A stretch of DNA of 64,000 nucleotides from a bacterium (GCA_965261085.1 OZ253442.1:448001-512000), one strand, 5' to 3'; positions 36,842-50,458 are shown, numbered from the stretch's first letter. A program made the numbers and translations. The notes: generated by a model not told the origin, from the letters alone.

Positions 36842-36856
36842 GGGCAACAAGCCGTA

Positions 36857-36905
36857 GTAGGGACAAATCCCTTCTCGGGGTCGTCCCACAGGTCGTGACC
36901 TGTCC
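36857..36905 (+). repeat. REP element, left of RAYT
   Basis: GTAGGGAC-initiated hairpin plus ACAGGTCGTGACCTGT palindrome; 44/49 nt identical to 37451-37499. Confidence 0.85.
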
Positions 36906-36941
36906 CCAAAAACCATAGGATGAAAACCAGGATTTTGGAAG

Positions 36942-37454
36942 ATGAAAAACCGACGGCTGAACAGGATGGGGGGATATGATTATTCCCAGGCCGGATGTTA
37001 TTTCGTGACGATTTGCGCACAGGACAGGCAATGTTTGTTCGGCGAAATCATCGACGACAAGATGGTTTTGAACGAGGCGGGCAGGAGAGTTGTCAATTGG
37101 TGGAGGGAAACAGAGAACAAATTTCCCCATGTCGAATTGGATGAATATGTCCTCATGCCGAATCACCTGCATGGCATCGTGATCATTCATGGCGCGTTTC
37201 AGGACAGGTCGCGACCTGTCCCTACGAGAACCACGAAAACCAAATCATTATCTGAATTGATCGGCGCGTTCAAAACCACGTCGTCGAAACAAATACGTGA
37301 AAACGGCTTCGCCTCTTTCAAATGGCAACGATCGTTTCACGACCACATCGTCCGCGATGATGACGATCTCAACCGGGTTCGAGAATATATCCTGAACAAC
37401 CCGCTTCAATGGGCGCTCGATGCGGAAAACCCGGACAATCGGGCAGGGTTGTAG
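36942..37454 (+). mobile_element. REP-associated tyrosine transposase (RAYT, Y1 HUH family)
   Basis: YFVTIC, MPNHLH (HUH), WQRSFHDHIVR, YILNNP; flanked by GTAG REPs, with an internal REP at 37201-37225. Confidence 0.92.
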
Positions 37455-37532
37455 GGACGAACCCCTACTCGGGGCCGTCCCACAGGTCGCGACCTGTCCG
37501 AAAAAGGGACAACCACGGGGGGTTGTCCCTAC
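37451..37532 (+). repeat. REP doublet, right of RAYT
   Basis: GTAGGGAC...GTCCC, ACAGGTCGCGACCTGT, then AGGGACAACC...GGTTGTCCCTAC. Confidence 0.85.
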
Positions 37533-37675: not shown

Positions 37676-38353
37676 ATGACGCTATCTGGTGAAACGCTCG
37701 CAAAGTTGAGAGAAATCGACACGCCCACGGTGTCGAACGCGGTGGAATCCTTCGGCGTGCGCCCGAGGACGCTGGGCCATACCGACGCGAGCATCGAGTG
37801 CATGTTCCCCGATATGGGCGTGGCGCTGGGCTACGCCGTGACGTTCACGACCAGCGAGTACGCCCCGGGCGAGGAGCGCACGCACACATCGCGCATCGCG
37901 CTCTATGAGGCCGTGGCCGCCGCGCCCAAGCCCTGCGTTCTCGTGCAACAGGACGTCGGCCCCAGGCAGCACTCGGCGTGCCTTTGGGGGGAAATCATGT
38001 CGAACCTCTTCTCGCGCCTGGGGGCGGAGGGCGTGGTGACGAACGGGGTGGTGCGCGACCTGGAAGCCATGCGCGAGGCGGGCTTCAAGACCTGGTGCGC
38101 GGGCATGACGGTCTCGCGCGGCGACGTGCGCGTGGTGGCGGTGAACACGCCGGTCGCCGTCGGCGGGATGGCCGTGGTTCCGGGCGATCTGATCCACGCG
38201 GACGGCGGTGGCGCGGTGGTCGTGCCCAAGGAAATCGCGGCGGAGGTTCCCGAAACCGCAGAACGCGTGCTCGCCAAAGAAGCGGGACTCCTCTCCGCCA
38301 TCCGCGCGGATGACTTCAGCCTGGAGGATTTGGTGAAGAGGTTTTATTCGTAG
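37676..38353 (+). CDS. RraA family / HMG aldolase-like protein
   Basis: DTPTVSNA, GYAVT, WGEIM, GVVTNGVVRD, PGDLIHAD. Confidence 0.9.
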   Translation: MTLSGETLAKLREIDTPTVSNAVESFGVRPRTLGHTDASIECMFPDMGVALGYAVTFTTSEYAPGEERTHTSRIALYEAVAAAPKPCVLVQQDVGPRQHSACLWGEIMSNLFSRLGAEGVVTNGVVRDLEAMREAGFKTWCAGMTVSRGDVRVVAVNTPVAVGGMAVVPGDLIHADGGGAVVVPKEIAAEVPETAERVLAKEAGLLSAIRADDFSLEDLVKRFYS

Positions 38354-38620
38354 GAGGGGGGGAGGGGCAAACCCATGTGTCCGCGCTCGAGTTTTATTTT
38401 CTGCAACATGTAATAAAAAACGAAAGCGGATTCGTTAAAATTCCTGCGCATCCTAGTGGCTCCCTGCCGAACCATCGTGTAGCCTCCTCCAATGTCCGGC
38501 TCCGATTCCACGATATTCGCCATCCTGATTCCTGAATCGGGGTTTTTGTGGTTCAATAGGACGGCTGGGAGTTTTTGGAGACGAGATAATACATGCAAGA
38601 CTAAATTAGTGAGCAACTCG

Positions 38621-39064
38621 ATGAGACACACACCGCTAAAAGCCCTAGATGGGAGTCTTACAAAGCAGAAGTATGGTGCTGTTAATCATCGAGTGTATGG
38701 TTTTGAACTCGTTCTTGACCTTCACGGGTGTGAAGCCGAGCTTTTCAACAGAGATTATATCGACAAGTTCTTTACTGATCTTTGCGAATTGATTGAAATG
38801 GAAAGGTGCGAAGTCCACTTCTGGGATGACGTAGGTGTTCCCGAGGAAGAACAGCAGACGTTGCCGCACACTAAAGGCACTTCAGCCGTCTGTTTCATTT
38901 TGACGAGTACAATCGTCATTCACACGTTGGATATTCTAGGCGCAGTGTACGTGAATATCTTTTCGTGTAAACCTTTTGAGCCGGATGTAGCGGCGGAATT
39001 CACAAGCAAACGGTTCAAGGCAGCATCCTGCAAAAAGACCTTTATTGAACGCACATTACGATAG
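38621..39064 (+). CDS. S-adenosylmethionine decarboxylase-like (SpeD/SpeH-fold) pyruvoyl proenzyme
   Basis: YGFELVLDLHGC, GTSAVCFILTSTIVIHT (T-S-T in place of canonical E-S-H), YVNIFSCKPF. Confidence 0.82.
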   Translation: MRHTPLKALDGSLTKQKYGAVNHRVYGFELVLDLHGCEAELFNRDYIDKFFTDLCELIEMERCEVHFWDDVGVPEEEQQTLPHTKGTSAVCFILTSTIVIHTLDILGAVYVNIFSCKPFEPDVAAEFTSKRFKAASCKKTFIERTLR

Positions 39065-39071
39065 GTGGTAT

Positions 39072-40454
39072 GTGGAGAATGAATTGCTTTTAAGAGAACT
39101 GGAACTTGACCTACCAGTAGCACTTGATAGACAGAATGCGCTTACACAAATTCGAGAGGCCATACGATTTCGGTTGCCTACCCACATCGTACCTCTTAGA
39201 TTCGCCATTACGAAATCAGGTGGTAGCCGTGTTAGTTGTGCGATCAGTAGCCTGGAGGCATCGCCTGAATCTGGCGATGCCGCGAACATTTCGATATTAG
39301 AATTTGTTCCGCGCAAGTATGAGAATACGAACCGGTTTAATGTCGTATTTTTGATTCCAACAGGCATAGGTGCCGAAATTGGTGGCCATGCGGGTGATGC
39401 TACGCCGGCCGCACGGTTGATTGCCGAAACTTGCGACACATTGATTTTGCACCCCAATGTTGTCAACGCATCCGACATTAACGAGATGCCAGCTAATTCT
39501 CTGTATGTCGAAGGTAGCGTAATCGCTCGGTTGTTGATGGGCACCATTGGCCTTGTTCCGACACGAGCGAACCGGGTGTTGGTCATTCTTGATGCCCATA
39601 AAGACGAGTTGTTCGTCAACGCCGCTGTCAATGCGGTGAGTGCAGCACGCTCATCTTACGGTCTGGTTAGCCCCGAAGTGATTAAACTTTTCCCACCCGT
39701 GAGGATGAGGGCTGAGTATACCGATTTTGGTACCGCTGCCGGCGAAATTAGCGGTCTTGAGCGTGTTTTTGCAGTGCTAGAAGAACAAGAGGGGGAATAC
39801 GATGCAATTGCTATTTCCTCAGTGATCTCAGTCCCGGAGGAGTTCCACCAAGGATACTTCGATGCCGCAGGAGAGATGGTTAATCCTTGGGGCGGTGTCG
39901 AGGCCATGCTCACCCATGCCGTATCAAGCCGATTCAACGTACCATCGGCACATTCGCCGATGTTCGAGACTCAGGATATTGCGAATCGGGACCCAGGGGT
40001 AGTGGAGCCGCGTATGGCAGCGGAAGCAATTTCCCTCACATTTTTCGAGAGTGTTTTGAAGGGACTTCACAAAAGTCCGCGAATCGTTACCGATTCATCC
40101 CAAGTATCCGATCCCGGTGTCATATCGGCATCTGACGTTTCGTGTTTAGTGATTCCTGACGGTTGTGTAGGTTTACCAACGCTAGCCGCGCTAGAACAGG
40201 GCATCCCGGTAGTAGCTGTGCGGGAAAACAAGAATCTAATGGAGAATGATCTGACCACGCTGCCTTGGCGATCCGACCAACTCCACATTGTTGAGAATTA
40301 TTGGGAGGCAGCAGGTGTACTCTGCGCGATTCGTGGAGGCATTGCGCCTGAGTCCGTTCGGCGGCCACTCTCACACACTCGGGTCACGACACGAAAGTTT
40401 GCCGACACCGAAAGTGAACAACATTCAGCGGAGAGAGCAAAACATTTCGGCTAA
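39072..40454 (+). CDS. DUF3326 domain protein with N-terminal extension
   Basis: IPTGIGAEIGGHAGDA, HPNVVN, LYVEG, NPWGGVEA, AHSP, PRMAAE, VENYWEAAG; GTG start 7 nt after the upstream stop. Confidence 0.82.
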   Translation: MENELLLRELELDLPVALDRQNALTQIREAIRFRLPTHIVPLRFAITKSGGSRVSCAISSLEASPESGDAANISILEFVPRKYENTNRFNVVFLIPTGIGAEIGGHAGDATPAARLIAETCDTLILHPNVVNASDINEMPANSLYVEGSVIARLLMGTIGLVPTRANRVLVILDAHKDELFVNAAVNAVSAARSSYGLVSPEVIKLFPPVRMRAEYTDFGTAAGEISGLERVFAVLEEQEGEYDAIAISSVISVPEEFHQGYFDAAGEMVNPWGGVEAMLTHAVSSRFNVPSAHSPMFETQDIANRDPGVVEPRMAAEAISLTFFESVLKGLHKSPRIVTDSSQVSDPGVISASDVSCLVIPDGCVGLPTLAALEQGIPVVAVRENKNLMENDLTTLPWRSDQLHIVENYWEAAGVLCAIRGGIAPESVRRPLSHTRVTTRKFADTESEQHSAERAKHFG

Positions 40455-40605
40455 AAAGTTGTACCAACATTACTCACTATCGAACTAAGCATACTCTTTT
40501 ATCAAGACTTACGCTTTAAATCTTAATAACGAATTTCCTTATTAAGCGTTTTCGCAACAAGGTTTACCCCCCCCCAATACCGCTCCGGCACGAAGGTCTG
40601 CTCGT

Positions 40606-40770
40606 TCACGGACGGGCATTGTAGAGGTTGGTGAGGCTATGAGCATTGAGTTCTCTCGCCGCCGTCCCGCCACGCGTGACCGAGCGTCCAGCCGGGTGTT
40701 GCAGGATAGGTAAGACATGATCCACCCTGGTTTTGCTCACAACTGTCTGTCAATTCCGCGGGTTAAGCGG
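40606..40770 (-). pseudogene. Decayed C-terminal fragment of an MmeI/YeeA-like (type IIL/IIG) DNA methyltransferase
   Basis: Minus strand reads ...LNP..., VDHV.P..., AARELNAHSLTNLYNARP*, resembling the conserved WLNPP...ELKKRTLTNLYNARP tail of this family; interrupted by stops/frameshift. Confidence 0.55.
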
Positions 40771-40896
40771 CGTCCGAGTTGAGATATCCTTGACTTTCAA
40801 GCAACATTGTTCCAAAAGGGCGTCTGGCAAAGTGGCTTGGATTATCCGGGACAGATCGGCTCGAAACTGACATAAAGAAAGGGTGGAGTTGCGCGA

Positions 40897-42204
40897 ATGT
40901 TCTACATTTCCCGCATACGGCTTTCCAACATCAAATGCTTTGAAGAAGTGGATATTAATCTCTCCCAACCGTCTCAGGACAACGCAAGTTGGACGCTGCT
41001 TCTCGGCGATAATGGCACGGGCAAGACGAGCCTTCTGCGTTCAATCGCCATGTGCCTTTGCGACAAGACAGGAGCCTCTGGTCTTCTGACCGAGTTGTCG
41101 GGGAACGTCATCCGTGATGGATACGATGAGGCTAAAATAGAGCTGAAACTTGTTTCCCCCACAGAGCCGGACGCAACCTACACGATAACCACGACATTTA
41201 AGAAAAATGATTCGAACACCGAGGATGTTGACCAAACAATCGAACCGGAAAAAGGTTTTTCTCGCGCGGAGCTACTCGCGTGTGGTTATGGGGCCGCGTT
41301 CGGCACCATTGGGAGTGAAGTCTTTGATCAATATCGCCTTATCGATGCCGTCTATTCCCTCTTTAATTACGCAGCCCGGCTTCAGAATCCCGAGAATGCG
41401 CTCTTCCGCATCTCGCGGGAGGGAGTCGACCTCAAACAACTACTGGAGCGGATCGATCGAATTTTAATGCTCCCAATCGGCTCTACTGCTTTGGACTCAT
41501 CCGGCCTCCGGGTTTGCGGGAAGTGGGGTGACTATGTTCCCGCAGGCGCGCTCGGCGATGGATACGCCGCAACGCTTTCATGGGTCTGTGACCTTCTTGG
41601 GTGGTCGCTTCTCGCTACCCGCAGCAAGTTCGACGTTCGTGTTCGGGGGATCGTGCTTCTCGACGAGATGGAAAGACATCTCCATCCATCGTGGCAGCGT
41701 GAAATAGTTGGGTTACTTGCCAGGGAATTTACCGGTGTTCAGTTCATCGCGAGCACACACGCGCCTCTGACCGTGATCGGGTCAGCCTCGCTTTCCGACG
41801 AATGCTGCCAGTTGATCCTCTTCGAACAGGGCCAGGATGGTGTCGAAGTTCAATCGGGCCTGAATCCACCGCGCGGTCGGCGTGCGGACCAAGTGCTCAC
41901 CTCGTACCTGTTTGGGTTGCCATCGACGACCAGCGATGACGTTATTCAGAAAATTGAGCGATATGCGAAATTGAAGCGATATGACTCATCGGACACTGAC
42001 ACTCGCGAGGAGATTGAAAACCTCCGTAAGTTCCTGACCGAGACGCTTGGAACGCCGGAGACGGAGTTGCAGCGCTCGGTGGAAAAAGCCGTTCATGACA
42101 CTTTGAACGCAATGCTACGGGAGGATTTGGACAGCGATGTGCTGAGGTGGGAGACGCGAAGACAACTCCGCGATTTGTTTGCTCCCAAGGGTAAGCACAT
42201 ATGA
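40897..42204 (+). CDS. ABC/AAA ATPase, Septu PtuA-like
   Basis: RLSNIKCF, Walker A GDNGTGKT, LGDGY signature, IVLLDEMERHLHPSWQR, STHAP. Confidence 0.88.
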   Translation: MFYISRIRLSNIKCFEEVDINLSQPSQDNASWTLLLGDNGTGKTSLLRSIAMCLCDKTGASGLLTELSGNVIRDGYDEAKIELKLVSPTEPDATYTITTTFKKNDSNTEDVDQTIEPEKGFSRAELLACGYGAAFGTIGSEVFDQYRLIDAVYSLFNYAARLQNPENALFRISREGVDLKQLLERIDRILMLPIGSTALDSSGLRVCGKWGDYVPAGALGDGYAATLSWVCDLLGWSLLATRSKFDVRVRGIVLLDEMERHLHPSWQREIVGLLAREFTGVQFIASTHAPLTVIGSASLSDECCQLILFEQGQDGVEVQSGLNPPRGRRADQVLTSYLFGLPSTTSDDVIQKIERYAKLKRYDSSDTDTREEIENLRKFLTETLGTPETELQRSVEKAVHDTLNAMLREDLDSDVLRWETRRQLRDLFAPKGKHI

Positions 42205-43049
42205 TCAAGATCAATTTTCAGGAGCCGACGAGTGAGGAATGGCAGGAATGGCGCCAAAAATGCGATGCTGCCCGCGACGAAATGATTGAGAGTTTTGAGA
42301 ACGGCCAGAAACTGAATGTCACGAATCTTTATAAGGACCTGCGTATGCAGAGCGTATACAAGTCAGGAAAAGCGCCTTTCTACGGTAAGTGCGTTTACTG
42401 CGAGTCCGATGTTCTGGTCAATCAGCCAGGAGACATTGAACATTGGCGGCCCAAGAATCGTGTAACCGACGAGAAGGGTTGCATCATTAAGATTGAAACT
42501 GAGGACGGTACGACGGTCTCGCATCCCGGCTACTATTGGCTCGCTTACGAATGGCGGAATCTTCTTTTGGCCTGCGCAGATTGCAACAGACCCTCGAAGG
42601 CGAAGACTGATCGGCGGATCGGAAAGTCGGATCAATTTCCTGTGGAGGATTTTAGAGCAACAAAAATGGGCGAAGAATCCCAAGAGTCCCCTATCCTGCT
42701 CAATCCTGTCGAGGAAGACCCCGCAGCTCACCTCGAAGTCGATGATACCGGAGTCATAATCGCCAAGACCGACCGCGGTCAAAAGTGTATTGATATTTTT
42801 GGGTTGAATGACCGCGAAGCGTTACGGGATGCAAGGCGGGAGTGTATCAAAAACACAAAATCACGGATTGAATCGATGGTTTGGAAGGTGTGGGCGGCGT
42901 CGCGGCAAGACGACGAAGAAGATGCAATGCGCGAGCTTTCCGAGAAAGTTGAAGAGATCGAGAGCGGTGCGGCTCCATATTCTGCATGTGGTCGCCTCGT
43001 TTTGCTTAAATCTAGGAACAAGTTGGGACGACTTGTTGGCCGTTTGTGA
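42201..43049 (+). CDS. HNH endonuclease, Septu PtuB-like
   Basis: KCVYCE, IEHWRPK, YYWLAYEWRNLLLACADCN, LLNP..EDP..HL; ATGA overlap with the ATPase. Confidence 0.88.
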   Translation: MIKINFQEPTSEEWQEWRQKCDAARDEMIESFENGQKLNVTNLYKDLRMQSVYKSGKAPFYGKCVYCESDVLVNQPGDIEHWRPKNRVTDEKGCIIKIETEDGTTVSHPGYYWLAYEWRNLLLACADCNRPSKAKTDRRIGKSDQFPVEDFRATKMGEESQESPILLNPVEEDPAAHLEVDDTGVIIAKTDRGQKCIDIFGLNDREALRDARRECIKNTKSRIESMVWKVWAASRQDDEEDAMRELSEKVEEIESGAAPYSACGRLVLLKSRNKLGRLVGRL

Positions 43050-43103
43050 ACTGTTGACCACCCAGACCGCCAGAGGTAGAGACCCGTTCGTCGCAAGCCG
43101 TTA

Positions 43104-43274
43104 ATGGGACAGGTCGGAAATGAAGAGCCGGCCCATCCAACACAGCGAATCCCTGATGGGCAAAAGGCTCTTCTCTGTGAGCCCAAGCAGGAAGAGCTAT
43201 ACGGAGGAGCGCTCATCCTTGATTTGCACGACTGCGATACCGCCATCATGCGCGCCGTGCGGACTCAACCCTGA
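43104..43274 (+). pseudogene. Truncated second AdoMetDC-like gene (N-terminal fragment, 56 aa)
   Basis: ATG at 43104; LYGGALILDLHDCD aligns with VYGFELVLDLHGCE of 38621-39064, then the frame ends at TGA 43272-43274. Confidence 0.65.
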
Positions 43275-43419
43275 CCCTCAAGGGGGGAGTGGTTTCTCCC
43301 TCATCGCTCGGAATTCACTTTGACACGCGCGGCCCGGAATGTGGTATGATTCGGCGCGTTATTGGTGAAACCCCCGCCGGGAGCGGGCGCGGATTCAAAC
43401 CTCAAGAGGATGCGACGCC

Positions 43420-43773
43420 ATGAAGGTGATGAACTATAAGGAAGCGGAACTCAAATCGGAGAAGGCGGCCAAGGGCGCGGGCATCCGCTGGCTGCTCAGC
43501 GAGCGCGACGGCGAGACCGAAATGGCGATGCGGGTCATCGAAATCGAAGCGGGCGGACAGACGCCCGACCATTCCCACTCCTGGGAGCATCAGGTGTTCA
43601 TGCTCAAGGGCGAGGGCCGCGTGACCGTCGAGGGCGAGTCGCGGGACATCGCGCCGGGCTCGGCCATATTCGTCGCCCCGGGCGAGAATCACACCTTCCA
43701 CAACGATTCGGACGAGACCATGGAGTTCGTCTGCATGATTCCCGTGAGCGCCACCCAGGCGTATGAGCACTAA
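43420..43773 (+). CDS. Cupin domain protein
   Basis: TPDHSHSWEHQVFMLKGEG, PGENHTFHN. Confidence 0.9.
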   Translation: MKVMNYKEAELKSEKAAKGAGIRWLLSERDGETEMAMRVIEIEAGGQTPDHSHSWEHQVFMLKGEGRVTVEGESRDIAPGSAIFVAPGENHTFHNDSDETMEFVCMIPVSATQAYEH

Positions 43774-43802
43774 GACGGGAAAACCTCTCGCTACAGCTTC
43801 AG

Positions 43803-43830
43803 AATATCTGAAAATATCGATAAATTCACG
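43803..43830 (+). repeat. Left copy of a 28-bp inverted repeat (partner at 56906-56933)
   Basis: AATATCTGAAAATATCGATAAATTCACG is the exact reverse complement of 56906-56933; imperfect similarity continues about 22 nt inward. Confidence 0.9.
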
Positions 43831-44113
43831 GCGTTATTCGATAAATTTCTGAAAAGGCGCCATCCGGCGGCTCTTCCCAAGCGCTACAATATATTGCGCT
43901 GAACAAAAATTCCTCACACAACATACAGGCGCTCTCCGTTCACTCGTAGAGAAACTCCCTCAAAATCAATTTTAAATACTATAACAAAGTAAATATCAAT
44001 AACTTATAATAATTCTTGCATAAACAACTTTAAGAGAGGCGGAATATCAATAAATTATATTATTTATAAAATCAATAAATACAATATGATATGGGGATTA
44101 GTAAAAAAACTAC

Positions 44114-44143
44114 TTGAAATAAATCCTAAGCCTTTGGTATATT
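44114..44143 (+). promoter_or_regulatory. Putative sigma70-type promoter for the GAF-mreB operon
   Basis: TTGAAA-18 nt-TATATT with TG extended -10, in an AT-rich intergenic region. Confidence 0.45.
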
Positions 44144-44179
44144 CCGCGAAGTCCCAATCCGTCCTATTGGGTGTTGGAA

Positions 44180-45634
44180 ATGACGAATCTGGAAAGAGAT
44201 ATTTTCTCCCTCATCACGCTCGTCAGCAACGTCACGGAAGCCTACTCCGCCTGCTTATTCCTTGAAAACAAAAGGCGTAAGACCTACCAACTCACCACAT
44301 ATCACAGCCTCAGCCCATACATTCTCGCGGATGCCTCGGTCGATGTAGGACAGGGCTTCATGGGTTGGGTTTTGGAGAACAATGAGCCGTTAAGTGTCAA
44401 TCAGTTCGACAAAGACACCCTGGTTCTCGGTTATTACAGCAGAAACGAGGATATCAAATCCTTCATGGCGACCCCCCTGCCCTCTTCAATCAACAAAGGG
44501 GCGCTCGCCATCGACAGTAAAAAAAGTTGGTGTTTCACGTCCAAAGACCAAAAAATACTCGCGGGGTTCGCCCAGCAATTCGCCTACCTTGCAGACGGTG
44601 CCTTGACGACCGTTCAAGTGGAGCGACGCTCCATGAACGTTCCCGCCTTCAGCAGATATTTGACTTCGCTTCGCTCAAGCGATAATGAAGATCAATTGCT
44701 GAATGCGATATGCCAGGTACCGCGCGAGTTGCTTCCCTTCGACGCCTGCTTCCTCGTCCTCATCGACGAGGAAGCAGGCGTCCCCCGTCTTATCCGAACC
44801 TCTGGGTTTGGGGAACTCTTTCTGGGCGAAGTGACCATTAGTGAACGCGCAAGTCTGGCAGGCTATGTATTAAGCAAAAAGGAAAGCTTAAGACTCCCGG
44901 ATCTGAAGGGGAAAAAGGGAACCAGGCCTCTCTTTCATCATGATGAACCCCGTCTTGAAGCGCGTTCCGCCGCGTGTCTTCCCCTCATCTCAAGGGGTGA
45001 AATTCTTGGTTGTCTAGGATTCGCAAGCAAACGTCGAGCCCAATTTGACGCTTCTTCTATCCAGCGTGGAGAAATCATTGCAGCTCTTGTGGCGGATGCC
45101 ATCGCAAACCGGAAAAACGAGTTGCGCTGGCAAGCACGTTTAGAAATCGACCCCCTTACCGGAGAACAGAATGTGGAATATCTACATTCTCGTCTTCATG
45201 AAATTATCTGCGAGGCGGAAACAAAGGGTCGTCAACTCGCGTTGCTCAGCATCGCTCCTGACGCTTCATCAGAATTCAGTGATACGCCTGAGGAAGAAGT
45301 TATTCTTCATCTCTCAAATTCGCTTAAACCATTCGCTGCTGGAAATGATATTTTAGTGCGGCATGAGGGGCCACGTTTTCTCTTGTTATTGCAAGACTCC
45401 TCCCAAGAATACGCTGAAGCCGTAGCAGAGCGAATTATACATGTAGTTAATCACACCCCCTTCTACCTCGGTGGGAAAGAGTTCGAAATCACAATTTCAA
45501 TAGGTGCTGCATGTTTCCCTGAAACTGCGCGAAGCTCAAAAAGCCTTATCAAGTCATCTCTTGAAGCATTAGGTTTTGCTCAAAAAGGGGGGGCGGTAAA
45601 TCAATTTTGTTTTATGGGGGGAGATAGATCATGA
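44180..45634 (+). CDS. Tandem GAF domains + degenerate GGDEF domain protein
   Basis: GQGFMGWV..., IKSFMATPL, second GAF (SAACLPL), DPLTG, RHEGPRF in place of RYGGDEF, ISIGAA.FP. Confidence 0.85.
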   Translation: MTNLERDIFSLITLVSNVTEAYSACLFLENKRRKTYQLTTYHSLSPYILADASVDVGQGFMGWVLENNEPLSVNQFDKDTLVLGYYSRNEDIKSFMATPLPSSINKGALAIDSKKSWCFTSKDQKILAGFAQQFAYLADGALTTVQVERRSMNVPAFSRYLTSLRSSDNEDQLLNAICQVPRELLPFDACFLVLIDEEAGVPRLIRTSGFGELFLGEVTISERASLAGYVLSKKESLRLPDLKGKKGTRPLFHHDEPRLEARSAACLPLISRGEILGCLGFASKRRAQFDASSIQRGEIIAALVADAIANRKNELRWQARLEIDPLTGEQNVEYLHSRLHEIICEAETKGRQLALLSIAPDASSEFSDTPEEEVILHLSNSLKPFAAGNDILVRHEGPRFLLLLQDSSQEYAEAVAERIIHVVNHTPFYLGGKEFEITISIGAACFPETARSSKSLIKSSLEALGFAQKGGAVNQFCFMGGDRS

Positions 45635-46668
45635 AACTACATTTTCTAAAGGGCCTCAGATCCTGGATGGGGCCCAATATCGCGATGGACCTAGGAACAG
45701 CGAATACCTTGGTTTACACAAAAAATGCCGGAATCGTTCTTGATGAACCTTCTGTTGTCGCTTTGAACTCAAAAAATGGAGGGGCCGTTCTCGCAGTAGG
45801 TAAGAAAGCCAAGGAAATGTACGGCCGGACCCCAGATTCAATTCGAACAATTCGTCCTATGAAAGATGGGGTGATCGCCGATTTTGACGTAACCAAAGCA
45901 ATGATACGTCATTTTGTTAAAGCAATTGTACCCAAAAGGTCTTTTAGCCGACCTACAATGATGGTTTGCGTTCCCTCAGGAATCACTAGTGTCGAAATGA
46001 AAGCCGTGATTGATTCCGCCACTCAATGTGGGGCCGGCAAGGTCCATCTAATAGAAGAACCCATGGCTGCGGCCATTGGAAGCAAACTACCAATCCATGA
46101 AATCGCAGGCTCAATGATTGTTGATATTGGGGGAGGAACAACCGAAATGGCCGTCATCTCCCAATATGCCGTTGCATATTCAGAATCTCTCCGTATGGCA
46201 GGAGATGCAATGGACGAATGCATACAACGCCACATCAAAAGACACCACGGTTTATCGATAGGATCATTCGAGGCTGAGCGCGTAAAAATGGAGATTGGCG
46301 CAGCTGCTCCTCCTTCAGAGCCGCTTGAAATGGAAATTTCAGGCGCAGATGTTTCCACTGGCATGCCTCGCACCATTAAGCTAACCGATGAATCAGTGCG
46401 AGAGGCTCTCGACGGCCCCGTGAAAGCCATAGTTGAATCAATCAGAAAAGCTCTATCCAAAACAAGCCCTGAGCTTGCTTCAGATATCTACCGACGAGGA
46501 ATCGTATTAGCGGGCGGGGGTTCGCTCTTAAAAGGACTCGGGACGAGGCTCCATGATGAGACAGGTCTCCCCATTTATAGAGTAAAAGACCCACTCACCA
46601 CAGTCGTCCGTGGAACTGGATACGTACTAGACCACTTAAAAGACTTCAAGCAAGTCTGTCTGAACTGA
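45631..46668 (+). CDS. mreB: MreB-family actin homolog (stand-alone paralog, no mreCD adjacent)
   Basis: DLGTANT, EPSVVA, RPMKDGVIADF, EEPMAAAIG, DIGGGTTE, LAGGGSLL; ATGA overlap with the GAF gene. Confidence 0.93.
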   Translation: MKLHFLKGLRSWMGPNIAMDLGTANTLVYTKNAGIVLDEPSVVALNSKNGGAVLAVGKKAKEMYGRTPDSIRTIRPMKDGVIADFDVTKAMIRHFVKAIVPKRSFSRPTMMVCVPSGITSVEMKAVIDSATQCGAGKVHLIEEPMAAAIGSKLPIHEIAGSMIVDIGGGTTEMAVISQYAVAYSESLRMAGDAMDECIQRHIKRHHGLSIGSFEAERVKMEIGAAAPPSEPLEMEISGADVSTGMPRTIKLTDESVREALDGPVKAIVESIRKALSKTSPELASDIYRRGIVLAGGGSLLKGLGTRLHDETGLPIYRVKDPLTTVVRGTGYVLDHLKDFKQVCLN

Positions 46669-46693
46669 TTTTCACGAGCACCACCCCCCCCAA

Positions 46694-46731
46694 CCGGGGG
46701 CCCGGCCCCATGCGCAATACCGGGCCCCCGG
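46694..46731. terminator. GC-rich hairpin after mreB (no U-tract)
   Basis: CCGGGGGCCCGG...CCGGGCCCCCGG 12-bp perfect stem. Confidence 0.45.
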
Positions 46732-46844
46732 CCCTTCCCACATAGAATGAATGTAGAGAGATTTTACTCTCAGTAACAATCGGTTAGAATCAGTGAGAAT
46801 TGCTAATCGTATTTAAAATTCTTAACTTCAGCTAGGAAAATAAA

Positions 46845-47117
46845 ATGGCTTTCTCACAACAAGGCGATTCATATTCATTCGAGTCATCAATAGAGGAGTT
46901 GAAACTCATATACAGAATATTACATCGCCACATCGGAGAACACCTGGAGCTTATGGATAGTGAGTTCATGGATGAATTGCAGATCGCGCTACAAACCAAA
47001 GCCCAAAAAGAAGGGGTGGACATAGGCCATCACGGTGCATGGGACCTATGGCTGGGCAATGATGCGGCAACGCCATGTGAAGAACGTGTGAAAAAACGAA
47101 AAACATTCGATAATTAA
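46845..47117 (+). CDS. Hypothetical protein (90 aa)
   Basis: Clean ORF with AGGA RBS, convergent with aroE. Confidence 0.7.
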   Translation: MAFSQQGDSYSFESSIEELKLIYRILHRHIGEHLELMDSEFMDELQIALQTKAQKEGVDIGHHGAWDLWLGNDAATPCEERVKKRKTFDN

Positions 47118-47992
47118 ACCTCACCCTTGAGGCGTAACTCCAACGCTTCGTGTAAAACTTCCATCACAATATCCGTAGGCATATCCACGCCCGTCCACAT
47201 TTTCCAAGCAGCCGCTCCTTGATATACCAACCAACCCGTTCCGCGAACAATTCGAGCGCCAGACCGTCTGGCTGATTTTAGAAATTCCGTATCAGGTGGA
47301 GTGTAAACAGCATCCGAGCAGATACAGCCTTTCGGTATAGCGTCTTCGGGAATCGGCTTGGTAGCCATACGCTCCGCGTCTCCCCACATCCCGAGGCTTG
47401 TTGTATTCACGATAATCTCACAACCATCAGCCGCCGAATACAAATCATCCAAACCACCACCCATTATTTTAGAAGATGGAATACTCTTCTCCACAAAGTG
47501 TGCTAATTCTAAGGCCTTTTCCGATGTTCGATTTCTGATTTCAAGATGAGCCGCTCCACACTGGGCTATTTTGACGGCAATGGCTCTCGCGGCCCCTCCC
47601 GCACCCAAAACAAGACATTTCTTTCCCTTGGGATGTTCTCCCGTTGTTTCCTCTAAAAATCGGAGCCAACCGATCCCATCTGTATTGTGACCAACGAGAC
47701 GACCGTCTTCTTCAAAAACTATCGTATTTACAGCACCCATCAACCGGGCATCCTCGCTGAGTTCATTCATCAGCTTAGCGACAGCCACCTTGTGCGGAAT
47801 TGTGATCGTGAGTCCACGAAATCCCATTGCCTGGGCTCCTCGCACAGCTTCTTCCAAATAATCGGGGTGTACCTCATACGAAAGATAATGGTAATTCACA
47901 CCCAAAACCTCAGCCGCTTTGTTATGGAGTACTGGTGATAAAATATGACCTGCCGGGTATCCAAAAACACCCAGTGGTATCGGATTTGGCAT
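47114..47992 (-). CDS. aroE: Shikimate dehydrogenase family
   Basis: LSPVLHN, TIPHK, GAVNT, GHNTDG, LGAGGAA, NRT, NTTSLGM. Confidence 0.9.
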   Translation of the reverse strand: MPNPIPLGVFGYPAGHILSPVLHNKAAEVLGVNYHYLSYEVHPDYLEEAVRGAQAMGFRGLTITIPHKVAVAKLMNELSEDARLMGAVNTIVFEEDGRLVGHNTDGIGWLRFLEETTGEHPKGKKCLVLGAGGAARAIAVKIAQCGAAHLEIRNRTSEKALELAHFVEKSIPSSKIMGGGLDDLYSAADGCEIIVNTTSLGMWGDAERMATKPIPEDAIPKGCICSDAVYTPPDTEFLKSARRSGARIVRGTGWLVYQGAAAWKMWTGVDMPTDIVMEVLHEALELRLKGEV

Positions 47993-48196
47993 GAGCAATC
48001 TCCTGAATATCATTTCATTTGGCTAACACGACATTGGCGTGATAAACTTATTACTATTACGATAGCCTAGAGTTTTCGGAACGCATTCGCAATCGAGATA
48101 TCACTGCATCTCTTTTGGGGTTTCATATCCTGAAGACTCGATTTCGCAACATAAAATACTAGATATCATTTAAATAAGCAGTATATTGGGGGCCCC

Positions 48197-50458
48197 ATGA
48201 GTGAATACAAGACAGCCGGGAAAAGTATCCCCAGGTATGATCTGCCAGATAAAGCTGTGGGCACGGCCAAATTCGCGGCGGACGTCACTACTGCGCAGCC
48301 CCTGGTCAGTTTAGTGCTCAGGAGCCCACACCCACATGCTCGTATCATTTCCATAACCACACAAAAAGCCAGAAAAATACCGGGCGTACGCACCTTATTG
48401 GTCAGCAATGATTGTCCGCCACACCTTTTCGGTCTTGAGATTAAAGATATCTGTTGGCTAGCTCGTGATGGTTACGTCCGATATATCGGAGACCCAGTTG
48501 CAGCTGTTGCGGCGGAATCAATGGATGCCGCCCAAGCGGCGCTAGACTCCATACAGGTGAACTACAAAGTGCTTGAGCCTGTAGTGGACCTTTTGGTGGC
48601 GCGTGACGGCAATGGCCCACTTGTTCACGAAGATTGGGAAAAAATAGGCTTAGGGCCCAATGGAGAAGGTAATGTGATCGGTCGCTATGAAAAATCCATG
48701 GGCAATGTGGATGTGGCCATGGATAAAGCAGACTATATCTTTGAACACACATTTCATACTCCATACGCGCACTCGGGATATCTCGAACCCCATGCTTGTG
48801 TGGCAGAACCAGGTGCCGATGGAAAAATCACCATTTGGACAACAACGCAAGCGCCCTTCGTTATCCGCGAACAAGTGGCAGCAGCTTTGGGGGTTCCTCT
48901 CACGAAAGTCAAAGTCATCCCCACGGAAATCGGCGGAGGATTTGGAGGAAAGATTCATTCGTTTATAGAACACATTATTGCATTACTTGCTCTGAAGAGC
49001 GGGCGCGCCGTGCGCCATGAGATGACGCGTGAAGACGATCATAATTGCGTCAGTCCCAGACAAGGGTTACGAATACACTTAAAAACCGGAGTGACCTCTG
49101 AAGGCAAAATCATAGCGCGTGAAGCAGATGTCATTGTCGACCATGGTGCATATGGGCCTGGTGCCCCGGGTCAGGCAAGTTCCCGCATCCCGATGTTCAC
49201 CAGTTGTTACAATATCCCTCATACTCTTGTGAAAATGACGAGCGTCTACACCAATGGTCCTATTTGTGGCTCGGTGAGGGGGCCATGTGGACCTCAGTGT
49301 TTCTTCGCAACGGAAGTGCATCTCGATATTATTGCGCGTGAGCTAGGTATCGACCCCCTTGAAATCAGACAAAAAAACGCCATACGAAAAGGCGACACCG
49401 GATTATTCGGCACGCAAAAAGACGATGGCATGCTCAAAGTTTTGGAAAGTACCGCCAAAGAAGGAAACTGGGGTGAGGCTATCAAGACGAATGTGAATTT
49501 AGAAGGTCCTGGCTGGAAGCTCGGTCGTGGCCTTGCCGTTAGTTTCTGGCGCGGAAATGGTGGAGCTTCCGCGTGCACGGCGCGCTTAAATGCAGACGGG
49601 AGTGTTCAACTCCTCAGTGGCTCCGTGAACCTTACGGGCGCAACAACCTCAATGTGCCAGATTGCTGCGGAAAAAATGGAGATTGACTTTGAGCAAGTAT
49701 CCTTTGACTGCGGTGATACCGACACTGCACCGGAATCCATCCACGCGGCGGGCAGTATGTTGACCCGCTCAATGGGTGCCGCCGTTGTTGTTGCTGTAGA
49801 CAATCTGAAAGAAAAAATTCGAGTTGTTGCCGCCGAGAAACTTGAAGCCGACCCGGAGGATCTAAAAATCGAAGGGGGGCGCGTTTTTTCCCGATCCACG
49901 CCCGATCGATCTATGTCACTGAGTGAAGTAGCCAAGGCGGCACCTGGGATTTCAGGCTATATTATGGGTCAAGCCGAAACACAAGCTCCGGGCCCTTGCC
50001 CCATCTACACGGCGCAAGTAGCGGAAGTGGCCGTAAATCTAGATTCGGGTGAAGTGAAAGTTTTAAGGCTAGTTTGTTCACAGGACGTAGGCTTTGCCAT
50101 GAATCCAATCTCAGTAATCGGCCAAATGGAAGGCGGGATGCTTCAAGGAATCGGTTTAGCGCTAATGGAAGAACAACCTCGTGATGGGGCCGGCAATATC
50201 TATGGAGGAACTCTCCATGAATACCTTCTGCCCACCAGTCTGGATGTTCCCGAACTGAAAGCTGTAATGATTGAAAACAAGGCGGATGATACGCCTTATG
50301 GCATGAGAGGCGTCGGCGAACCACCCATACTTGCCGCACCCGCGGCCATCATGAATGCTATCGCCGATGCAATAGGTACTCGATTTTTCAAGATCCCGGT
50401 GGGCCCGCACCACATATGTGAAGCGATCGGAACACAAAAAACGCGATTTAATTTTTGA
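48197..50458 (+). CDS. Xanthine dehydrogenase/CoxL family molybdopterin-binding large subunit
   Basis: RSPHPHA, YLEPH, IGGGFGGK, VRGPCGPQ, GQMEGG, RGVGE. Confidence 0.92.
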   Translation: MSEYKTAGKSIPRYDLPDKAVGTAKFAADVTTAQPLVSLVLRSPHPHARIISITTQKARKIPGVRTLLVSNDCPPHLFGLEIKDICWLARDGYVRYIGDPVAAVAAESMDAAQAALDSIQVNYKVLEPVVDLLVARDGNGPLVHEDWEKIGLGPNGEGNVIGRYEKSMGNVDVAMDKADYIFEHTFHTPYAHSGYLEPHACVAEPGADGKITIWTTTQAPFVIREQVAAALGVPLTKVKVIPTEIGGGFGGKIHSFIEHIIALLALKSGRAVRHEMTREDDHNCVSPRQGLRIHLKTGVTSEGKIIAREADVIVDHGAYGPGAPGQASSRIPMFTSCYNIPHTLVKMTSVYTNGPICGSVRGPCGPQCFFATEVHLDIIARELGIDPLEIRQKNAIRKGDTGLFGTQKDDGMLKVLESTAKEGNWGEAIKTNVNLEGPGWKLGRGLAVSFWRGNGGASACTARLNADGSVQLLSGSVNLTGATTSMCQIAAEKMEIDFEQVSFDCGDTDTAPESIHAAGSMLTRSMGAAVVVAVDNLKEKIRVVAAEKLEADPEDLKIEGGRVFSRSTPDRSMSLSEVAKAAPGISGYIMGQAETQAPGPCPIYTAQVAEVAVNLDSGEVKVLRLVCSQDVGFAMNPISVIGQMEGGMLQGIGLALMEEQPRDGAGNIYGGTLHEYLLPTSLDVPELKAVMIENKADDTPYGMRGVGEPPILAAPAAIMNAIADAIGTRFFKIPVGPHHICEAIGTQKTRFNF

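Follow-up and report, generated by a model that had tools for sequence, protein, structure and literature searches.

Why should the genes of a metabolic enzyme pair stand beside the ATPase and the nuclease of an anti-phage system? This question is raised by positions 38621-43274 of a 64,000-nucleotide stretch of bacterial DNA (GCA_965261085.1 OZ253442.1:448001-512000), which we analyzed at its full length and call the window. There, genes for a SpeD-like decarboxylase and a DUF3326 protein are followed by ptuA and ptuB, the ATPase and HNH nuclease genes of the Septu system, and by a stub of a second SpeD-like gene. The original prediction, made from the sequence of the window, had seen in this a recurring unit of the order ptuA-ptuB-AdoMetDC-like-DUF3326 (AdoMetDC, S-adenosylmethionine decarboxylase). 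The unit did recur in the loci that we compared. Our preferred reading, to which we give a probability of about 0.55, is that it represents an undescribed subtype of Septu, rearranged in the window, in which an enzyme module would control PtuAB.

PtuAB of one subfamily is linked to a decarboxylase and DUF3326

We compared the window with contigs of its relatives, which carry L-numbers; coordinates refer to the 64-kb window unless a locus is named. The window PtuA alone, used as a single-protein query against metagenome contigs, gave 188 pattern matches and no relative. Relatives were retrieved once an alignment query (PtuA of the window, L003, L006, L012, and L013) replaced the single protein, and the best 80 of 228 were kept. 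A decarboxylase gene lies directly after ptuB in 46 of the 54 loci that extend at least 1300 nt past ptuA; 39 of these genes are SpeD-like and seven are of a pyridoxal 5'-phosphate (PLP)-dependent, nspC-like type. Where at least 2800 nt follow, both the decarboxylase and the DUF3326 genes are found in 20 of 24 loci, bearing out the unit foreseen from the window. The 26 remaining loci are too short to judge, with the start of a decarboxylase gene visible in six. By the same two counts (46/54 and 20/24), the subfamily departs from the stand-alone two-gene layout of Septu type I.

The genes are closely packed, with median gaps of about -4 nt between ptuA and ptuB, about 5 nt between ptuB and the decarboxylase gene, and 1 nt between the latter and the DUF3326 gene. 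PtuA identity to the window ranges from 32% to 66%, and linked rows occur throughout the PtuA tree (FastTree, 72 rows), on which the type of decarboxylase switches at least seven times with the slot staying filled. Distances of PtuA and PtuB correlate with an r of 0.75. On this comparison of loci, PtuAB is linked to the enzyme pair at the level of a predicted operon.

Of the 46 loci with enough upstream DNA, 17 have a further gene at most 400 nt upstream of ptuA, in either orientation; it encodes an MfnB-like aldolase (Pfam 4HFCP_synth, E 1e-37 to 1e-42), and three of the 17 copies are short remnants. The accessory pathway may have the aldolase as a third enzyme. A search of longer proteins with the SpeD-like query gave three matches, one of them with a GNAT domain and one, partial, with PF11805, and no fusion to PtuA or PtuB, and no reverse transcriptase (RT) family was among the Pfam matches of 131 scanned flank proteins of the metagenome loci. 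One locus, L086 (3934-7387), has the order ptuA-ptuB-DUF3326-SpeD-DUF3326, its two DUF3326 copies being of different clades.

The decarboxylase and DUF3326 as a two-enzyme module

A scan of species-representative genomes with DUF3326 yielded 74 loci from many phyla. We counted neighbors over 71 loci, namely 70 genome loci and the window, after L022, L029, L049, and L069 were dropped on account of the open reading frame (ORF) caller. DUF3326 adjoins a SpeD-like gene in 20 of them, a PLP-dependent Orn_DAP_Arg_deC gene in 39, and neither in 12 (two at contig ends). The PLP partners score 278-313 bits on the NCBIfam model nspC (carboxynorspermidine decarboxylase), below its cut-off of 409. In metagenome-assembled genomes (MAGs) of Alphaproteobacteria, we found a conserved context of ion channel, DUF2170, PspA, GSP-synthase-like, decarboxylase, and DUF3326 genes, in which the decarboxylase slot is SpeD-like in four loci and PLP-dependent in six; the swap is a displacement in place. 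A single 831-aa protein fuses DUF3326 to PF00278.

Comparison of these loci shows the two enzymes to be coupled, as a putative functional unit. In pavettamine biosynthesis, PavB (DUF3326) and PavA (Orn/Lys-decarboxylase domain) are both required for a triamine intermediate, according to the available text of a preprint (bioRxiv 10.64898/2026.06.12.731819). By analogy with PavA/PavB and with the nspC-like partner, the product of the module would be of the polyamine kind. DUF3326 may carry out a condensing step and the decarboxylase may finish the carboxylated product, as in the carboxy(nor)spermidine route. Because a PLP-dependent nspC-like gene replaces the SpeD-like gene, the common substrate is likelier to be of an amino-acid or carboxy-polyamine type than S-adenosylmethionine (SAM). 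As to the nspC type itself, the partners in relatives fall below the cut-off, the window has the SpeD-like type, and DUF3326 has no clear match to a solved enzyme.

The Alphaproteobacterial context ties the pair to a PspA membrane-stress cluster. In Dehalococcoidia (L024, L030, L035, L043, and others), a conserved run starts with DUF3326, an nspC-like decarboxylase, and an unknown 474-aa protein; next come a ~1058-aa SecA-like protein and two more unknown ones. Among P0121, P0123, and P0126, DUF3326 is fused to NNMT/SET methyltransferase domains and to an adenylation-carrier pair, and a SpeD-like domain is joined to a GNAT acetyltransferase.

The four intact genes of the locus keep their predicted motifs

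All five elements lie on the plus strand within 38621-43274 at the coordinates that had been predicted (Table 1), and the four intact genes have Pfam or PADLOC matches. The SpeD-like and DUF3326 genes are tightly coupled. The SpeD-like stop at 39064 is 7 nt ahead of the GTG at 39072 or overlaps the frame from the TTG at 39045; ptuA and ptuB overlap by 4 nt, and the frame of the stub begins 54 nt past the ptuB stop.

The SpeD-like protein matches Pfam AdoMet_dc with an E of 1.6e-16 (61 bits; cut-off 25) and PHROG 3125 with an E of 9e-16. All of 14 homologs share its Ser96, His101, and Cys116. These line up with ES-S, IHT, and FTC in Thermotoga maritima AdoMetDC (1tlu), where the aligned residues are the processing Ser and the catalytic His and Cys. 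The Glu that precedes the processing Ser is a Thr in the window protein. On TIGR03330, it scores 30.9 bits against an equivalog cut-off of 75.65 and thus falls outside the AdoMetDC equivalog. The DUF3326 protein matches positions 2-336 of the 337 in its Pfam profile (E 9.9e-90, 301 bits) and contains the GGHAGD loop, invariant in DUF3326, with H115 and D118. An AlphaFold2 model of it has a predicted local distance difference test (pLDDT) score of 83.6 and a predicted template modeling score of 0.86. A PDB profile search found nothing below an E of 0.16, Foldseek gave TM values of at most 0.21, and the ESM Atlas held no usable match. With VIA-align, the best Z (9.6) was to lumazine synthase, followed by LacI/periplasmic-binding and GT-B Rossmann-like domains.

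In PtuA (PADLOC PtuA, E 1.6e-59), residues G37/N39/G42/K43 of Walker A, Q163, D256-E257, and H288 are conserved in at least 90% of 66 rows; with its Walker A, Q-loop, Walker B, and H-loop, the protein has the motifs of a Septu PtuA. Likewise, PtuB (PADLOC PtuB, E 1.1e-48) has C64xxC67-E68, H81, N120, and C125xxC128-N129 conserved in at least 90% of 47 rows, and this CxxC...H...N...CxxC arrangement is the HNH nuclease pattern of a Septu PtuB. The ratio of nonsynonymous to synonymous substitution rates (dN/dS) against the two closest relatives is 0.15 (L006) and 0.08 (L003) for the SpeD-like gene, 0.09 and 0.08 for the DUF3326 gene, 0.16 and 0.21 for ptuA, and 0.19 and 0.28 for ptuB. With values of 0.08-0.28, the four intact genes are under purifying selection, their predicted catalytic motifs kept.

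The truncated second AdoMetDC-like gene noted 54 nt past ptuB was found again with a hidden Markov model (HMM) of 19 SpeD-like DUF3326 partners (E 0.0012, 15 bits, HMM positions 14-34), as the sole other match to that HMM among 1621 six-frame segments of the window. The stub has no Pfam match; in tblastn it matches best the SpeD genes located after ptuB in L081 and L117, and the region is absent from L006 (blastn). We take the stub to be real on the strength of a weak match.

The window copy appears to be rearranged

The history of the window copy involves TM11, a ~400-aa protein of no family, whose gene lies ahead of the decarboxylase gene in ten genome loci (SpeD-like in nine, PLP-dependent in L067). 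The DUF3326 protein of the window groups with the TM11-type copies L002-L009 (Shimodaira-Hasegawa-like support 100; 78-90% identity), and PtuAB-linked DUF3326 copies are mostly in another clade (27 rows, support 96). The window PtuA, in turn, groups with L080 and L081, both of the canonical four-gene order (FastTree). By blastn, 38527-38607 matches L004 8261-8345, and the sequence from 38609 onward matches L004 from 9562 onward, within the SpeD gene. The leader and SpeD matches to L004/L005 adjoin in the window; therefore, the TM11 gene is missing here. It is still present in L003, and L006 is without it, like the window.

The 442-nt spacer between the DUF3326 gene and ptuA holds no ORF with a family match and is kept in the two closest relatives, with continuous blastn matches to L003 (38609-43116) and L006 (38397-43055); it is probably the seam of two once separate cassettes. 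We suggest that a TM11-SpeD-DUF3326 cassette and a ptuA-ptuB-SpeD-DUF3326 cassette once stood side by side, that the downstream enzyme pair was then deleted save for 56 codons, and that TM11 was lost afterwards. The stub would be the remnant of the decarboxylase gene that belonged to PtuAB, with its DUF3326 gene gone; no trace of a second DUF3326 remnant was seen downstream of the stub. Retention of one intact pair would fit a PtuAB that needs one. Neither an MfnB-like gene nor a TM11 gene was found in the genome of the window, which was scanned in whole with a TM11 profile.

SpeD-type pairs occur among defense genes and in phages

A defense gene lies at most five genes away in 12 of 20 SpeD-type loci (19 genome loci and the window). 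These neighbors are SIR2/ThsA-like, type I, II, and IIG restriction-modification (RM), McrBC, SspE/GmrSD, SoFic, and PtuAB genes; other SpeD-type loci have transposases or a prophage nearby. Among 51 other DUF3326 loci, taken as a control (534 neighbor genes scanned as 210 cluster representatives), there was one clear defense case, a TIR/PDC-S35 protein in L008, and a few generic matches. Co-occurrence with defense genes, suggested as a check with the original prediction, came to 12/20 versus 1/51 loci; a Fisher test gives 1e-7 (3e-5 when every generic match is counted), which is a description and not a probability since the loci are not independent. The longer metagenome loci are flanked by type I/IIG RM, HmaC, Shedu, PDC-S11, GmrSD/HEC-06, and SoFic genes together with integrases and transposases. 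The distribution is patchy. Within the order of the window, 5 of 44 genomes have DUF3326 (3 of 22 other genomes of the genus), and several single-contig relatives that are 94-100% complete lack it; of 401 genomes sampled from the phylum to which the genome of L013 belongs, three have the SpeD-like gene.

TM11 is all-helical with a hydrophobic C-terminal half (model pLDDT 75.8); it has no Foldseek match at an E of 0.001 and no Pfam, NCBIfam, or PADLOC family. Its neighbors include SIR2, RM, SoFic, McrBC, and SspE genes, and in L144 it stands ahead of ptuA-ptuB-SpeD-DUF3326. For this enzyme pair, TM11 may serve as an alternative effector. We also considered a divergent ATP-grasp enzyme, as a GSP-synthase homolog occupies the same slot in Alphaproteobacteria; sequence and model indicate a membrane protein, and this candidate was rejected.

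Among viruses, IMG/VR yielded 68 DUF3326 loci, 53 of them with an adjoining SpeD-like gene; no PtuA, PtuB, TM11, PLP decarboxylase, or aldolase was found in the 68. The 129 neighbor proteins scanned, from 17 of these loci, include terminase, portal, DNA polymerase, primase, dCMP deaminase, exonucleases, and DNA methyltransferases, as well as a PurZ-like gene product; these contigs are of phages, with the pair placed amid DNA and nucleotide metabolism. The viral DUF3326 copies mostly lack the first ~85 residues. A tblastn search of GenBank phages with DUF3326 gave no match, and in the literature we found no paper on a phage SpeD-like/DUF3326 pairing.

How the module might control PtuAB

We propose that ptuA and ptuB are co-transcribed with genes for a decarboxylase, SpeD-like or PLP-dependent and nspC-like, and DUF3326, with the aldolase joining in about a third of loci. 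The decarboxylase and DUF3326 would carry out two steps in building a small polyamine-type amine. The module might control PtuAB through this product or through DUF3326 sitting on PtuA, much as RT-msDNA (multicopy single-stranded DNA) does in retron Ec78. Infection would cause some change by which the nuclease is released or armed. In the window, the intact upstream pair of the other lineage probably substitutes for the lost native pair. A wider idea, which we hold tentatively and regard as possible, is that the decarboxylase and DUF3326, with or without the aldolase, are the core of a modular immune family, in which a dedicated polyamine-like metabolite would hold or trigger interchangeable effectors, either PtuAB or TM11; phages, with the same pair, would feed, mimic, or jam this metabolite.

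Several points weigh against control of PtuAB by the pair. All five query PtuAs were already linked to the pair, so the 80 metagenome loci represent one subfamily and not Septu at large, and they include near-duplicates (L082-84, L125/128, and L090/142). Eight of the 54 loci are without the decarboxylase (L087, L097, L105, L111, L113, L143, L150, and L156). PtuA is nearby in only four of the 74 DUF3326 genome loci, one of which, L013, has the order ptuA-ptuB-SpeD-DUF3326, and the distances of PtuA and DUF3326 correlate with a Mantel r of 0.29, with 70 of 2000 permutations as high (n = 11). None of the 68 viral loci has PtuAB, so the pair also exists in its own right. In the window, the intact pair appears from the DUF3326 tree to be of a lineage other than the native partner of PtuAB; the predicted unit stands, then, and the role of this pair as its native part does not. 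With a foreign pair and 442 nt to ptuA, coupling in the window copy is an assumption. Structure prediction had been suggested as a check. The DUF3326 model resembles generic alpha/beta domains, from which no function can be read. For L089, a complex predicted from its native PtuA and DUF3326 scored 0.55 (runs 0.60, 0.47, and 0.55; best of three controls 0.02), which lies in a range where passes are more often wrong than right: of 80 solved complexes, 58 reach the mark, as do 2 of 110 mismatched pairs, and only seven of the 80 but both of these mismatches score at most 0.60. At least 57% of contacts are shared between the runs, with partner pLDDT at or above 85, and we read the complex as a weak hint of docking.

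Several of the same observations would suit mere hitch-hiking, in which an ordinary two-gene Septu and a mobile polyamine pair, an auxiliary metabolic module that phages carry too, co-occupy variable islands and do no joint work. Without PtuAB, the pair is found in phages (53/68), beside TM11 or PspA/GSP-synthase-like genes, and in stable contexts in Dehalococcoidia; the window pair is of a foreign lineage, 442 nt from ptuA, and co-phylogeny is weak. Chance neighbors, however, would not keep order, strand, and few-base gaps down to ~33% PtuA identity (46/54), nor would the decarboxylase slot be expected to stay filled through at least seven swaps on the PtuA tree. We consider hitch-hiking doubtful; a chance neighborhood of a metabolic pair and Septu had been the main reading and was dropped after the metagenome linkage counts. 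An RM-like logic, unlikely in our view, would have the amine, made with the aldolase where one is present, on or tightly bound to host DNA or nucleotides as a mark of self, with PtuAB attacking what is unmarked and phages mimicking the mark. Such a logic would account for a phage pair amid genes of DNA and nucleotide metabolism, for RM genes as frequent neighbors, and for a window that lost the pair belonging to PtuAB yet retains another next door. Base hypermodification pathways use enzymes of the DNA glycosylase, transferase, and kinase types, however, and the operon has no conserved member of these; DUF3326, as PavB, also serves plain polyamine synthesis, and the fold search gave no nucleic-acid enzyme.

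The ideas raised with the original prediction, that the pair produces decarboxylated SAM (dcSAM), depletes SAM, or senses phage SAM lyases, presuppose a true AdoMetDC. The fold is that of AdoMetDC, with the pyruvoyl Ser, the His, and the Cys kept. These ideas are weakened by the PLP-dependent, nspC-like replacement (7/46 and 39/71 loci), by the score of 30.9 against 75.65 bits, and by the Thr in place of Glu before the processing Ser, and further by an operon without an aminopropyltransferase in a genome that has a canonical speD-speE elsewhere. SpeD homologs that have turned into ornithine or arginine decarboxylases are on record as well, as the available text of PMC10407285 describes. A SAM-centered role is thus highly improbable. 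The cell's own nucleic acids might instead be the target, with a special polyamine and a nuclease serving stress responses or DNA maintenance; this would fit the linkage of the pair to PspA/DUF2170/GSP-synthase-like membrane-stress genes, and PtuAB of Ec78 targets host tRNA and plasmid DNA according to the available text of PMC12819146. The patchy distribution and the defense-island flanks fit accessory immunity better than housekeeping, though, and leave such a non-immune role improbable.

Relation to known systems

Septu is among the commonest defense systems, and to our knowledge, the known accessory module of PtuAB has so far been the retron. Septu type I (Doron et al. 2018, as cited in the available text of PMC8565338) has the same ATPase and HNH nuclease in overlapping genes and is a stand-alone pair, whereas the subfamily described here has two enzyme genes downstream and often a third upstream. 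Septu type II, or retron I-A (Ec78 and Ec73: RT, non-coding RNA, and PtuAB), likewise joins PtuAB to a non-nuclease accessory module. Retron I-A has its RT (PtuC) by ptuAB, whereas the window locus is without an RT and its accessory module consists of metabolic enzymes. In Ec78, the accessory RT and msDNA dock onto elements of PtuA, as the available text of PMC12819146 reports. The pavettamine cluster (as far as the preprint text is available) resembles our loci in pairing DUF3326 with a decarboxylase, there an Orn/Lys-decarboxylase-type domain. Unlike them, it has no nuclease and makes a secondary metabolite with Rieske and JmjC oxygenases, the decarboxylase here being of the SpeD fold. SpeDA, SpeDC, and phage polyamine enzymes are also anomalous second SpeD proteins without an adjoining speE, or phage-borne; the available texts of PMC10407285 and PMC9992855 pair such SpeD homologs with SpeE, HSS, SpeY, or CASDH/CASDC, and DUF3326 appears in neither of these texts.

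CBASS, Thoeris, and Pycsar are signal-based systems with swappable effectors. Our loci resemble them in a constant small-molecule enzyme module with varying effectors, here PtuAB or TM11, and differ in having no nucleotide cyclase or TIR domain. In PADLOC-DB 2.0.0, no model matches the SpeD-like protein, DUF3326, TM11, or the aldolase, and the available text of the PADLOC paper (PMC8565338) lists Septu types I and II (with RT) only. Within the full-text literature (subscription papers and supplements outside its scope), we found nothing linking Septu, PtuA, or PtuB to AdoMetDC or polyamine, no anti-phage paper with carboxynorspermidine decarboxylase, and, among DUF3326 papers, none on defense. 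These searches point to the Septu-enzyme pair operon as an undescribed variant of Septu.

DUF3326 is conserved from cyanobacteria and plants to phages, and phages manipulate polyamine chemistry. If the preferred reading is true, PtuAB would have a second, chemically tractable control of its nuclease beside the retron, DUF3326 would gain a testable role as a decarboxylase partner, and polyamine chemistry would be joined to bacterial immunity. If the modular metabolite reading is true, it would amount to a metabolite-centered arms race of a kind not yet described. The operon, at ~3.9 kb, is easily cloned, and its predicted catalytic residues are clear.

Genome setting and flanks of the locus

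Table 1. Features of the window locus and of compared loci
Feature	Coordinates	Strand	Remarks
Leader	38527..38607		Precedes the TM11 gene in L004 and L005; here directly abuts the SpeD-like gene
SpeD-like pyruvoyl-type decarboxylase (AdoMetDC fold), 147 aa	38621..39064	+	PF02675; open frame extends back to 38492
DUF3326 protein	39045..40454	+	PF11805; 469 aa from TTG 39045, 460 aa from GTG 39072
442-nt spacer, DUF3326 to ptuA	40455..40896		Blastn-continuous with L003 and L006
PtuA, ABC/SMC-type ATPase of Septu	40897..42204	+	PADLOC PtuA; Pfam AAA_21, AAA_15, AAA_23
PtuB, HNH nuclease of Septu	42201..43049	+	PADLOC PtuB
56-codon stub, second SpeD-like gene (putative)	43104..43274	+	HMM match; matching part ~43185-43247
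TM11 loci	L002 8347-11407; L003 8350-11410; L016, L017, L014, L067; L144 907-2076		
MfnB-like aldolase, examples	L080 3100-3834; L139 5224-5952; L089 5149-5880 (-); L012 6688-7455		
Phage pair, examples (IMG/VR L163-L230)	L212 5610-6978; L216 5574-7002		
Alphaproteobacterial context loci	L010, L011, L018, L039, L032, L047, L050, L052, L066, L068		

On its 4.27-Mb contig, the window begins at 0.448 Mb. At 1.22 Mb, a canonical speD (141 bits) lies beside speE, which places speE 0.73 Mb from the locus; no RT gene is near the locus, RVT_1 matches in the genome being found only at 1.15 and 1.69 Mb. The absence of a nearby RT or spermidine synthase gene, noted from the window, thus agrees with the whole genome. 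The locus had also been described as a lower-GC island. Its GC content is indeed low, at 0.47-0.53 against a genome mean of 0.587 (standard deviation 0.038 per 10 kb), over a tract from ~38.4 to 56 kb that also includes mreB, a GGDEF gene, and others. L006, a MAG contig, is syntenic with the window over 38397-50432 (blastn); therefore, the low-GC tract is not an island of 4.6 kb. A promoter and terminator scan of 38200-43600 gave no signal above shuffles.

The arrangement in the window is not an assembly artefact, because the block, the stub, and the GC step at 38.4 kb are all found in independent contigs from the runs of three coded studies: contig X1 covers 38293-43348 with 0 differences, X5 (37754-39019) spans the GC step, and X6 (39849-44500) spans ptuB, the stub, and a cupin gene. 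Position 38417 is a recombination breakpoint at the GC step. In all four runs, contigs have loose ends just upstream of 38417, where they share a common, unlike sequence. The region upstream of the SpeD-like gene differs between strains, with an OppC-like permease gene there in L006.

Further to the left is the gene of an IS200-like Y1 transposase (36942-37454; Pfam Y1_Tnp E 2.4e-6), with a 58-nt direct repeat on each side (36854-36911 and 37448-37505; 86% alike). Together (36854-37505), the transposase gene and repeats resemble a repetitive extragenic palindromic (REP)-associated tyrosine transposase with its REP units. On the right, the block is bordered by a high-copy repeat at 43709-43975, which has 10-15 times the surrounding contig depth in all four runs and joints to 36857 and 37227.

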